In this document: positions 32,455 through 45,356 of the stretch, piece after piece
Numbering within the stretch: the first letter of the stretch is position 1
How the letters are laid out: every line of letters begins with the position of its first letter
The notes under the pieces: model-generated
What the model saw: only the letters and a program-made list of their open reading frames with translations
Database searches by the model: none
Told to the model about the DNA's origin: nothing
Assembly (NCBI GenBank): GCA_048939765.1
Contig: JBHLPF010000009.1
Span: 1,716-65,715, forward strand
Length of the DNA: 64,000 nt
Direction: 5' to 3'
DNA from: Promethearchaeota archaeon
Lineage (GTDB): Archaea > Asgardarchaeota > Thorarchaeia > Thorarchaeales > Thorarchaeaceae
Translations under genes and position numbers: made by a program

Positions 32455-32598
32455 ATGGTCTACATTTGCCATAGCTGTCACAAAGAGGTCACTCCAGAAG
32501 GTTTGAAGACTCTTCCAGGCGTGAAATGCCCATACTGTGGAGGCCGGATTCTATACAAGATTCGCCCACCTGTTGTAAAGAGAGTAAAGGGTGTCTAA
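32455..32598 (+). CDS. rpo12: RNA polymerase subunit Rpo12/P (absent from the ORF track)
   Basis: Manual translation MVYICHSCHKEVTPEGLKTLPGVKCPYCGGRILYKIRPPVVKRVKGV. Confidence 0.93.
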   Translation: MVYICHSCHKEVTPEGLKTLPGVKCPYCGGRILYKIRPPVVKRVKGV

Positions 32599-32607
32599 TT
32601 CCTTTTT

Positions 32608-32628
32608 ACCCTGAATGTGATTCAGGGT
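32608..32628. terminator. Perfect 9-bp hairpin between convergent units
   Basis: ACCCTGAAT-GTG-ATTCAGGGT. Confidence 0.5.
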
Positions 32629-32720
32629 CTGTACAGAAGGTAGATCGCTGCAATTGCTGATGCCAAGAATAGGAGAATGAAGAATGCGCCTCCGATCTTG
32701 ATTCTTAATGAACGCCTCAT
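32622..32720 (-). CDS. 32-aa single-TM micro-protein (absent from the ORF track)
   Basis: MRRSLRIKIGGAFFILLFLASAIAAIYLLYRP; ATG overlaps the Get3 stop (TAATG). Confidence 0.6.
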   Translation of the reverse strand: MRRSLRIKIGGAFFILLFLASAIAAIYLLYRP

Positions 32721-33679
32721 TATTGCTCTTCTCCAATGAGAATCTTCCCTAGCTCTGTGAGCCCATCTAGACCTCGGATCTCTTTATCGAATAGAGGCAC
32801 CTCTGTTATATCAAGGTCCTTGTAGAGGTCCTTGATATCCACCATATTAGACTGTTGCATTTCTCTTCTTGTGCTGCAGAAGACACAGTCCGGATTGGGA
32901 GGTACAAGCTGGTTGACAATGATGTTGCTAGCGGGGATGTTCCAGCTGTGAAGACTCCCCAGCAGTCTTTGAGTCTCAAATACAGCCATAGCTTCTGGTA
33001 TCATCACAATTGCAAACTGAGTCATCTCAGGATCAGAGAGCTGTATTCTTGCCGCAAGGATTTTGTCCTTTGTGCGTTGTAGCATCTCCCATGAAGACTC
33101 GTCCTGAGCGCCGCCTCCGAACATTGCCCTCAGTCCTGACATCATAGAACTCAATCTCTGGCGCAGAGTGAGCATTCTTCCAAGCCAGCTATCCAGAAGA
33201 TCAGGCAGTTCTAGAAGTTTCAAGGTGTGTCCTGTCGGTGCTGTATCGAAGATCACTCTATCGTACGACGTGTCTTCAAGAAACTCCAGCATCTTTCCAA
33301 ACGCCATAGCTTCATCTGAACCAGGAGGTGACATGGCACCGATGTCTCCAACAAGCTGTGATGCCATTTCCAATTCTGGTCCAGCGCCACCTCCTCCTAT
33401 TGAATTCTGAAATTCCTGCATGCCCTTCGCGGTGTCGATTTCCATTCCCCAGAGATTCTTCACTCCCTTGATCTCAATAATCTCTCCACCTGAAAGGTCC
33501 TGATCGAAGCTATCACTCAAGCTATGAGCTGGGTCTGTTGACATCACTAGAGTTCGAAATCCATGCCTCGCTGAGAGAAGTGCCATTGCGCCTGCACAGC
33601 TAGTCTTACCGACACCACCCTTTCCACCTGATAGGATGAACTTGATGCTATCATTGTAGACGATACCCTTTATTGTCAT
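32720..33679 (-). CDS. get3: Get3/TRC40/ArsA family ATPase
   Basis: GGKGGVGKTS, STDPAHSLSD, FDTAPTGHT, C-terminal CVFC; ORF extends to 33766. Confidence 0.88.
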   Translation of the reverse strand: MTIKGIVYNDSIKFILSGGKGGVGKTSCAGAMALLSARHGFRTLVMSTDPAHSLSDSFDQDLSGGEIIEIKGVKNLWGMEIDTAKGMQEFQNSIGGGGAGPELEMASQLVGDIGAMSPPGSDEAMAFGKMLEFLEDTSYDRVIFDTAPTGHTLKLLELPDLLDSWLGRMLTLRQRLSSMMSGLRAMFGGGAQDESSWEMLQRTKDKILAARIQLSDPEMTQFAIVMIPEAMAVFETQRLLGSLHSWNIPASNIIVNQLVPPNPDCVFCSTRREMQQSNMVDIKDLYKDLDITEVPLFDKEIRGLDGLTELGKILIGEEQ

Positions 33680-33840
33680 TCTCTGACCTCTGGCGGCACA
33701 GGCTCGTGTCAGTCTATTAATGCTTCCATGCATCCAGAAACAGCATGCATAAGTATAAGCGCGCAATATCTAATGACGTAGGACAAGGAGTCTCACCACA
33801 TCTGAGCCCCCCGAAAAGTGCATACTCCGAGGATATCTCT

Positions 33841-34560
33841 ATGTCATCTTTCCCACAAGTAAGGACTTCAGTACTCGAATTTCCATCCACCATTATCCGA
33901 TTGATGGGAATATCTCCTCCTGAGGGAATGCCGCCACCAAATGCAGAGATACTGGCAAAGTTCAATCCCTCTGCAGTAGTCATGGTCATCATCGACAACT
34001 TCGGGCTATTTGAGGCAGTGGTCTACAAGCCGGAGGCCATGATAAAGAATCTAGAGGCGCTAGCATTGATTGAAACTGATGATCCCTATGCGATTCCTCT
34101 GATGACAGCTTTGCTTCGCCCCTTGGATGGCTTTCATATCATGAGGCATGCTCGTAACTATGGGAAGTCTGTAAAACTGATCTGCAGAGAAGAGGACACA
34201 GATGCCCTCGGTTTTGATTCAGGTATCACGGTGCACAAGCGTGACGATATGGCGACATATATTGAGGCGACAAAGCACATATTCAAGACAGAAGTGCTCT
34301 ATCTCCACTTTCTCGACTTCGAGAGCCTCTACGCTCAGTATGGTCACAGAACTCCACCCAAGACACTTCTTGAGAAGATTGTACGAAGAACTGACAACTG
34401 GGTGAAGGTGTTGCTAAAACAGGCAAGGGTGGGTACACTATTCATAGTGATAGGAAATCATGGTAGGCATCCAATACCCTTGGACTATGAAGGCAAGCTA
34501 GCAGAGTGGCGGAAGGCCAATGCACCCATTGCAATGATGTTCCAGAAGCGGTCTGAGTAG
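33841..34560 (+). CDS. Degenerate alkaline phosphatase-superfamily protein
   Basis: VIIDNFG, LHFLDFE, IVIGNHG echo DG.G / D..GH / ADHG motifs. Confidence 0.55.
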   Translation: MSSFPQVRTSVLEFPSTIIRLMGISPPEGMPPPNAEILAKFNPSAVVMVIIDNFGLFEAVVYKPEAMIKNLEALALIETDDPYAIPLMTALLRPLDGFHIMRHARNYGKSVKLICREEDTDALGFDSGITVHKRDDMATYIEATKHIFKTEVLYLHFLDFESLYAQYGHRTPPKTLLEKIVRRTDNWVKVLLKQARVGTLFIVIGNHGRHPIPLDYEGKLAEWRKANAPIAMMFQKRSE

Positions 34561-45265: not shown

Positions 45266-45356
45266 GGCCTCCTACAGGGTCGGTGGTCCGGCTCCATGGG
45301 CTTCAAACCCATGATCGTGCAAGCGATGAGAGTTCGATTCTCTTTGGAGGCCGCCA
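45266..45356 (+). tRNA. selC: tRNA-Sec (anticodon UCA at 45303-45305), 9/4 fold, CCA encoded
   Basis: Acceptor GGCCTCCTA/TTGGAGGCC; D stem GGGTCGG-TGGT-CCGGCTC; anticodon arm CATGGG-CTTCAAA-CCCATG; variable arm ATCGT-GCAA-GCGAT; T arm AGAG-TTCGATT-CTCT; G73 then CCA. Confidence 0.95.

Follow-up and report, generated by a model that had tools for sequence, protein, structure and literature searches.

A short gene directly downstream of get3 in several Asgard lineages encodes a putative tail-anchored peptide that may act in the archaeal GET-like pathway as a partner or dedicated client

Introduction

We wanted to establish whether a very short open reading frame, which begins at the stop codon of a Get3 gene in a thorarchaeal contig, is a real gene and, if so, what its product might have to do with Get3. 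The frame lies near the middle of the stretch of DNA analyzed here (the window; 64,000 nucleotides of contig JBHLPF010000009.1), and a preliminary description of that DNA had proposed that it encodes a tail-anchored micro-protein acting as a client, membrane receptor, or regulator of an archaeal GET-like system. Binding and delivery of tail-anchored proteins have been demonstrated for two homologues, MjGet3 and MtGet3 (cited in PMC6593721).

Results

The upstream gene

The gene that precedes the micro-ORF is located on the minus strand (33679-32720) and encodes an ATPase of 319 amino acids, which matched PF02374 in Pfam at E 5e-85 and the NCBIfam model TIGR00345 (GET3_arsA_TRC40) with 285.7 bits against a cut-off of 135. 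Full-length alignments were obtained to two archaeal Get3 structures (3ZQ6 and 3UG6) and to human TRC40 (6SO5), and at this length the protein contains one ATPase domain as opposed to the two of ArsA (1F48). The P-loop, GKGGVGKT, is of the deviant-Walker-A type; the CxxC motif is present as CVFC, in register with CEFC (3ZQ6), CDFC (3UG6), and CKMC (6SO5); human TRC40 and the protein could be aligned without gaps across the Met-rich insert of the client-binding subdomain; and the eukaryotic receptor-binding motif DELYED is partly kept as DLYKD. By these profile matches, motifs, and structure-sequence alignments, the product is of the genuine Get3/TRC40 targeting-factor type, as the preliminary description had named it. 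The start codon of the maximal ORF (TTG at 33766) is probably not the one used. The ATG at 33679 (MTIKG..., 319 aa) is most likely the true start because homologues are annotated at 319-320 aa, and the shorter version is further favored because the start of a divergent ORF on the plus strand (33745-34560) overlaps the maximal Get3 ORF. This divergent ORF of 271 aa has no Pfam match; NCBIfam gives it only a weak resemblance, at E 2e-4 and well short of the cut-off, to the C-terminal portion of phosphopentomutase. We also note that a tandem pair of ArsA/Get3-family genes, the products of which are ~31-33% identical to the Get3 of the window, is found in the same genome outside the window (G000, contig C81:18023-19820; loci L113 and L114) and is present again in many relatives.

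The micro-ORF and its product

The micro-ORF consists of 32 codons followed by TGA (32720-32622, minus strand), with the ATG at 32720-32718, the stop codon at 32624-32622, and the translation MRRSLRIKIGGAFFILLFLASAIAAIYLLYRP. Base 32720 is common to the TAA of Get3 (32722-32720) and the ATG of the micro-ORF, and the resulting TAATG overlap (32718-32722, minus strand) is presumed to be a site of termination-reinitiation. A Shine-Dalgarno-like GGAG is located 10 nt upstream of the ATG, inside the last codons of Get3 (32731-32734, minus strand), and GGAG, GGAGG, or GAGG is seen 4-14 nt ahead of the micro-ORF start in most relatives; we regard this motif as weak evidence because the same bases are constrained by the G-E-E codons at the C terminus of Get3.

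The peptide has a basic N terminus (residues 1-9, net charge +4), a hydrophobic stretch that spans residues 9-29/30 of 32 with a mean Kyte-Doolittle value of 2.45-2.7 and is predicted to form a transmembrane helix, and a C-terminal tail of 2 residues. Net charge falls from +4 on the N-terminal side of the helix to +1 on the C-terminal side, and the positive-inside rule, applied to the sequence only, would thus place the N terminus in the cytosol. A single transmembrane helix that ends no more than ~30 residues from the C terminus and no N-terminal signal sequence, which together define a tail-anchored protein, are both seen in the peptide, and the same layout recurs in 20/20 aligned homologues. 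Further, the window contains, over its six frames, 459 ORFs with a length of 25-45 codons, and the micro-ORF is the sole one of these with a hydrophobic stretch of transmembrane grade. The overlap and the 32-residue peptide that had been described earlier were therefore recovered exactly, on the minus strand; charge and hydropathy agree with the basic N terminus, hydrophobic helix, and 2-residue tail claimed for it, and the features of its sequence support a topology of the tail-anchored type.

Evidence that the micro-ORF is a protein-coding gene

We found the small frame after Get3 again in 24 related loci, and its length there is mostly 32 codons. Its start codon varies between ATG, GTG, and TTG, its stop codon varies too, and the junction with Get3 takes the form of TAATG, of ATGA, or of a spacer of 5-8 nt (46 nt in one family), so that the start is offset from the Get3 stop by -1, +2, +5, +6, +8, or +46 nt. 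The ratio dN/dS is about 0.05-0.2 in the frame of the micro-ORF (median pairwise 0.21) and 1.0-1.7 in the shifted frames (medians 1.03 and 1.68). Between the two most similar micro-ORFs, 10 synonymous and 2 non-synonymous changes were counted, the third codon position varies most (variable sites at positions 1, 2, and 3 are 26/32, 20/32, and 31/32, respectively), and frame and length are held across saturated synonymous divergence. The check proposed at the outset, i.e. whether the frame persists downstream of get3 orthologues and evolves as a coding sequence, thus returned both conservation and purifying selection of the coding type. We conclude from these substitution patterns that the micro-ORF is a genuine protein-coding gene under purifying selection.

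It could be argued that the frame is a chance ORF which is kept by an RNA element (a 3'-end hairpin or terminator) or by an antisense overlap with the 3' end of rpoP, because the stop codon lies within a hairpin and the end of the convergent rpoP gene is only 24 nt away. This reading is largely refuted, and we give it a very slim chance: the substitutions are periodic by codon, dN/dS is well below 1 in the frame of the micro-ORF only, frame and length survive saturated synonymous divergence, the micro-ORF is present where both the hairpin and rpoP are missing, Rfam has no match to the region, and no other of the small ORFs in the window encodes a helix of this grade. The hairpin itself (32609-32629) is located between the convergent genes and consists of a perfect 9-bp stem, formed by ACCCTGAAT (32609-32617) and ATTCAGGGT (32621-32629), and a loop of 3 nt. 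It folds with -14.4 kcal/mol in a 51-nt context and holds the minus-strand stop codon of the micro-ORF, so that sequence and folding energy bear out the earlier remark that the frame ends inside such a structure. No T-run follows it on either strand, and a bacterial-type scan returned no terminator. Strong stems are confined to the genus of the window and a few others, and in most genera the stem is weak or missing. Members of the genus of the window share a 5-bp core, CC(C)TGA/TCAGG(G), and because this core stem varies little, covariation is almost nil. On these grounds, we rejected the hairpin as a part of the module; it is probably a local feature of 3' ends or of convergent transcription. 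The convergent neighbor is a gene for the zinc-ribbon RNA polymerase subunit P (Rpo12; 32455-32598, plus strand; PF03604, E 1e-6), which is followed by a T5 run at 32604-32608. A reverse-frame RpoP signature is seen downstream in all loci of family f1, and the Rpo12 gene is context only, outside the module of Get3 and peptide.

Conserved residues and novelty of the family

A Ser in the middle of the helix (Ser-21) is invariant in all 20 aligned sequences, Arg-2 and Lys-8 are nearly invariant within an N-terminal basic cluster that is kept, and in Thorarchaeia, the residues Leu-17, Phe-18, Ser-21, and Ala-25 form a conserved face of the helix centered on the Ser. The invariant Ser and this face suggest packing against a partner in the membrane.

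Searches of Pfam, NCBIfam, and Rfam returned no match for the peptide or its region, and a Pfam scan of 20 members gave matches at noise level only, with neither GET2 nor CHD5/Get1 among them (E up to 10). Among 1.84 billion representative proteins, we found 10 matching clusters, all of 32-36 aa, none fused to another protein, and all unnamed or labeled "hypothetical protein"; the exact peptide of the window is absent from a collection of 15 billion proteins. This scarcity agrees with the suggestion that the gene is too short for normal annotation, and gene finders almost never call it. Full-text searches of the literature did not turn up any account of a small ORF that is coupled to an archaeal Get3, and neither a review of Get3-like proteins nor a 2010 survey of the gene context of ArsA homologues mentions the micro-ORF. 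Overall, the peptides appear from their sequences to be a previously undescribed family of 30-38 residues, single-pass and of the tail-anchored type, and the gene illustrates how conserved genes of ~30 codons are systematically absent from Asgard annotations. We note that the only Rfam match anywhere in the window is a tRNA-Sec (RF01852, 59.9 bits) at 45266-45352 on the plus strand.

Distribution and linkage to Get3

A profile of the thorarchaeal peptide gave one strong match per genome and was confined to that family and order. The DNA after Get3 was next inspected in 39 further Asgard loci, where the same layout (a basic N terminus, a single helix, and a tail of 2-8 residues that includes Pro) was seen in three more families, i.e. 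f12, in which the peptide reads MRKKQQNLLVAIILMIIILGSVIVGVLLLSLPLLP, f15 (Baldrarchaeia), in which it contains ...KLFALLFLLLVCISFFLYAFLIFSP, and f6 (an "Asgardarchaeia" lineage), in which it has 48 residues. The two profiles, that of the thorarchaeal peptides and that of these further versions, align end to end with an hhalign probability of 95%, a figure inflated by transmembrane composition, and the Get3 proteins of the peptide-bearing lineages are only about 45-55% identical to each other. A combined profile gave exactly one match per genome in 97/301 Asgard genomes (73 in f1, 1 in f2, 18 in f12, 4 in f15, and 1 in f6); the carriers are Thorarchaeia, one family of Baldrarchaeia, and two other lineages, and each carrier genome is metagenome-assembled (a MAG). 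Profile statistics for short transmembrane segments are inflated by composition, and weak matches within large ORFs (genomes G043, G012, and G240) were treated as spurious; a 49-aa ORF in a Lokiarchaeia-type genome (G230), which matched at E 2e-4, is a possible further copy.

When coordinates were compared, the peptide match was seen in 94 cases to follow that of Get3 on the same strand at a distance of 2-49 nt, and one further match adjoins a Get3 fragment at a contig break, so that 94 + 1 of the 96 credible matches are adjacent to Get3. In the four f1 genomes that gave no match, Get3 is missing as well or lies at the end of a contig. In f1, the peptide gene is followed by the convergent rpoP; in f6, an MBL/beta-CASP-type gene comes next instead, and in the related lineages f8 and f10, the same MBL gene follows Get3 directly, without a peptide. 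Because the downstream gene changes with the lineage and the junction of Get3 and peptide stays constant, the linkage is to Get3 and not to the neighborhood. The MBL/beta-CASP-type gene (MxxxHFLGGxREVGR...) was recognized after Get3 at loci L098 (f6), L089 (f8), and L086 (f10), and the f6 microprotein gene is placed between it and Get3.

The micro-ORF was not found after Get3 in 15 other sampled Asgard families or at four methanogen Get3 loci (Methanocaldococcus, Methanococcus, Methanothermobacter, and Methanobacterium). It is therefore not general to archaeal GET-like systems and is limited to some Asgard lineages, and, because these families and methanogens have Get3 without the ORF, Get3 does not need the peptide. 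Several other features adjoin Get3 at these loci. At L105 (genome G039, family f14), the stop of Get3 is overlapped, through an ATGA, by an ORF of at least 157 aa, which extends past the end of the locus and whose N-terminal helix resembles a signal anchor; this ORF encodes a different Get3-coupled membrane protein. In Methanocaldococcus, Get3 is followed by a gene-free, GC-rich, structured-looking stretch of 385 nt (L135:2248-2631), and at both Methanococcales loci (L135 and L136), a DUF116 gene (PF01976) immediately precedes Get3 in the same orientation.

On a Get3 tree, the peptide-bearing Get3s do not form one clade and 4 changes are needed, and a single peptide-bearing clade was rejected (AU p = 5e-4); this scatter implies several losses or gains. 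In Freyarchaeia (f19), a look-alike, ...RRKILAIILILLFLG[ST]..., stands alone 0.87 Mb from Get3 (L139:2523-2640, minus strand; L140:2515-2589, plus strand; L141:2521-2595, minus strand), ends 2-3 residues past the helix, and has a DUF763-like gene of 370 aa on one side and small-GTPase genes on the other. Given its distance from Get3, encoding in cis with Get3 is not obligatory.

Discussion

A peptide that is encoded directly after Get3 and has the layout of a Get3 substrate raises the question of whether it is a substrate. Our tentative answer, to which we assign a probability of roughly 45-50%, is that the peptide may be a dedicated, obligate client of Get3 and a small subunit of a membrane complex. 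Get3 and the peptide would form a two-gene operon in several Asgard lineages, presumably with translational coupling. The ribosome that ends Get3 would re-initiate at the overlapping or nearby start of the micro-ORF, and the finished peptide would be released with its sole hydrophobic helix still within the ribosomal tunnel, so that co-translational targeting would be impossible. Get3 made from the same mRNA would then take the peptide into its hydrophobic groove and deliver it to the cytoplasmic membrane with the N terminus inside and the C terminus outside. There, the peptide would serve as a small subunit of a membrane complex through its Ser-centered face (Leu-17, Phe-18, Ser-21, and Ala-25), and its partner could be the insertase itself. 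In an alignment of Get3 proteins, no column separates the lineages that bear the peptide from those that lack it, and generic binding in the groove fits this result better than a specialized docking surface. Recognition of a client requires neither an invariant polar residue nor a conserved helix face, and both point to a function within the membrane. We note, however, that adjacency to Get3 proves co-expression and not interaction, and that peptides of such small size and high hydrophobicity can also enter membranes spontaneously or with the help of YidC. The unlinked Freyarchaeia look-alike and the families and methanogens that have Get3 alone likewise count against an obligate client.

Two other roles for a membrane peptide encoded beside Get3 have to be weighed against this one. 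The peptide could serve Asgard Get3 as its membrane receptor, anchor, or regulator and would then be functionally a minimal analogue of Get2/CAML; its basic N terminus (M-R-x-x-x-K-R-K) would bind the acidic surface of Get3 at the membrane, its Ser face would dock the helix on the archaeal YidC/Ylp1-EMC6-like insertase, and the stoichiometry would be fixed by translational coupling. Strict co-location and coupling in ~97 genomes are a pattern typical of the subunits of one complex; the conservation of the basic cluster, with its Arg and Lys, would suit such binding, the invariant Ser and helix face suggest helix-helix packing, the part of the DELYED-aligned motif that Get3 retains would be in keeping with a receptor, and Lewis and Hegde found no GET2 homologue in archaea (PMC8675477). 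We nevertheless consider this role unlikely. Only ~9 residues precede the helix, compared with the long tether and three transmembrane helices of Get2/CAML; the positive-inside rule alone predicts basic residues ahead of a helix; no Get3 column co-varies with the presence of the peptide; Get3 occurs in the absence of the peptide in most Asgard lineages and in the methanogens; the Freyarchaeia copy is unlinked from Get3; and there is no similarity to Pfam families, GET2 and CHD5/Get1 included. Some of the same observations would suit a small membrane protein whose function has nothing to do with Get3, e.g. an accessory subunit of a transporter or enzyme, which shares the Get3 transcript and inserts spontaneously or via YidC. 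That the Freyarchaeia look-alike sits by itself between DUF763-like and small-GTPase genes, that the peptide is patchy on the Get3 tree (4 changes, with a single clade rejected at AU p = 5e-4), and that Get3 bears no signal of co-adaptation all speak for a role of this kind. We doubt it, because adjacency to Get3 outlasts all other neighbors at ~45% Get3 identity between lineages, and the order of Get3 and then peptide is kept with tight coupling wherever the two are linked. Prokaryotic gene adjacency this persistent usually reflects a functional link.

Much less probable is that the peptide damages membranes in the manner of a type I toxin, or that it forms a C-terminal anchor of Get3 produced by frameshifting or read-through, and both readings are largely refuted. 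In size and hydrophobicity, the peptide is like type I toxins, which are often multi-copy or mobile, patchy at the strain level, and accompanied by a cis-antisense RNA, but it is co-inherited with Get3 and kept vertically as a single copy at a fixed housekeeping locus in 97 genomes, with no repeats or signs of mobility. At loci L017 and L020, the micro-ORF is in frame with Get3, with only the stop and one codon between them; elsewhere, the relative frame varies, every ORF has its own start codon, and no fused protein is catalogued among the 1.84 billion representatives, in which all matches have the length of the peptide itself. A fusion with Get3 was accordingly rejected.

Overall, we conclude from comparative sequence analysis that the peptide is encoded by a real, undescribed gene and is a candidate for a partner of the archaeal GET-like pathway or for a client dedicated to it. 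It is thus a natural, genetically designated candidate for a Get3 partner in Thorarchaeia, Baldrarchaeia, and related Asgard lineages. If it is a client, it would be the first dedicated client of an archaeal Get3 and a useful native substrate for biochemistry; if not, it would be part of the docking machinery. Were it a receptor, a single helix would capture Get3 and couple it to a YidC/EMC6-like insertase, which would be a minimal precursor or analogue of the function of Get2/CAML in the closest archaeal relatives of eukaryotes.

Among known systems, the peptide most readily invites comparison with the minimal clients of Get3/TRC40 (Sec61-beta and, as very short examples, sarcolipin and phospholamban), with which it shares a very hydrophobic C-terminal helix, a basic N-terminal side that is predicted to be cytosolic, and an external tail of few residues; like them, it is too short for co-translational targeting, and it is encoded beside a bona fide Get3. 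Unlike these clients, it has practically no cytosolic domain, and it has no sequence relationship to them (Phospholamban matched 1/20 members at E 0.14); further, its gene shares an operon with the targeting factor, an arrangement that has no eukaryotic counterpart. The translocon-associated tail-anchored proteins RAMP4/SERP/Ysy6 have a transmembrane core, ...LFIFVVCGSAIF..., which resembles LFIFLFLASAIA in that a small residue in the middle of the helix is followed by Ser. Membership of that family (PF06624) failed, with a match in 1/20 members at E 0.74, and RAMP4 is twice as long as the peptide and has a ribosome-binding N-domain.

With Get2/CAML, which captures Get3 for the GET insertase, the peptide shares an N-terminal basic cluster that is predicted to face the cytosol and a genetic tie to Get3. 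Get2/CAML proteins have three transmembrane helices and a long tether, whereas the peptide has one helix, ~9 residues before it, 32 aa in total, and no sequence similarity to them. We therefore did not place it in that family, given the single helix and the lack of a GET2 match in Pfam at E up to 10. Its length, single helix, and lack of a Pfam match likewise exclude Get1/WRB (CHD5) and an insertase of the Oxa1 superfamily, which have three transmembrane helices and a coiled coil in the cytosol. Finally, the peptide is like the small bacterial membrane subunits KdpF, CydX, and AcrZ in being a single helix of 30-50 residues that is missed by annotation, coupled within an operon, and conserved along one helix face. 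The partners of those bacterial proteins are integral membrane complexes from their own operons, whereas the operon partner of the peptide is a soluble targeting ATPase.
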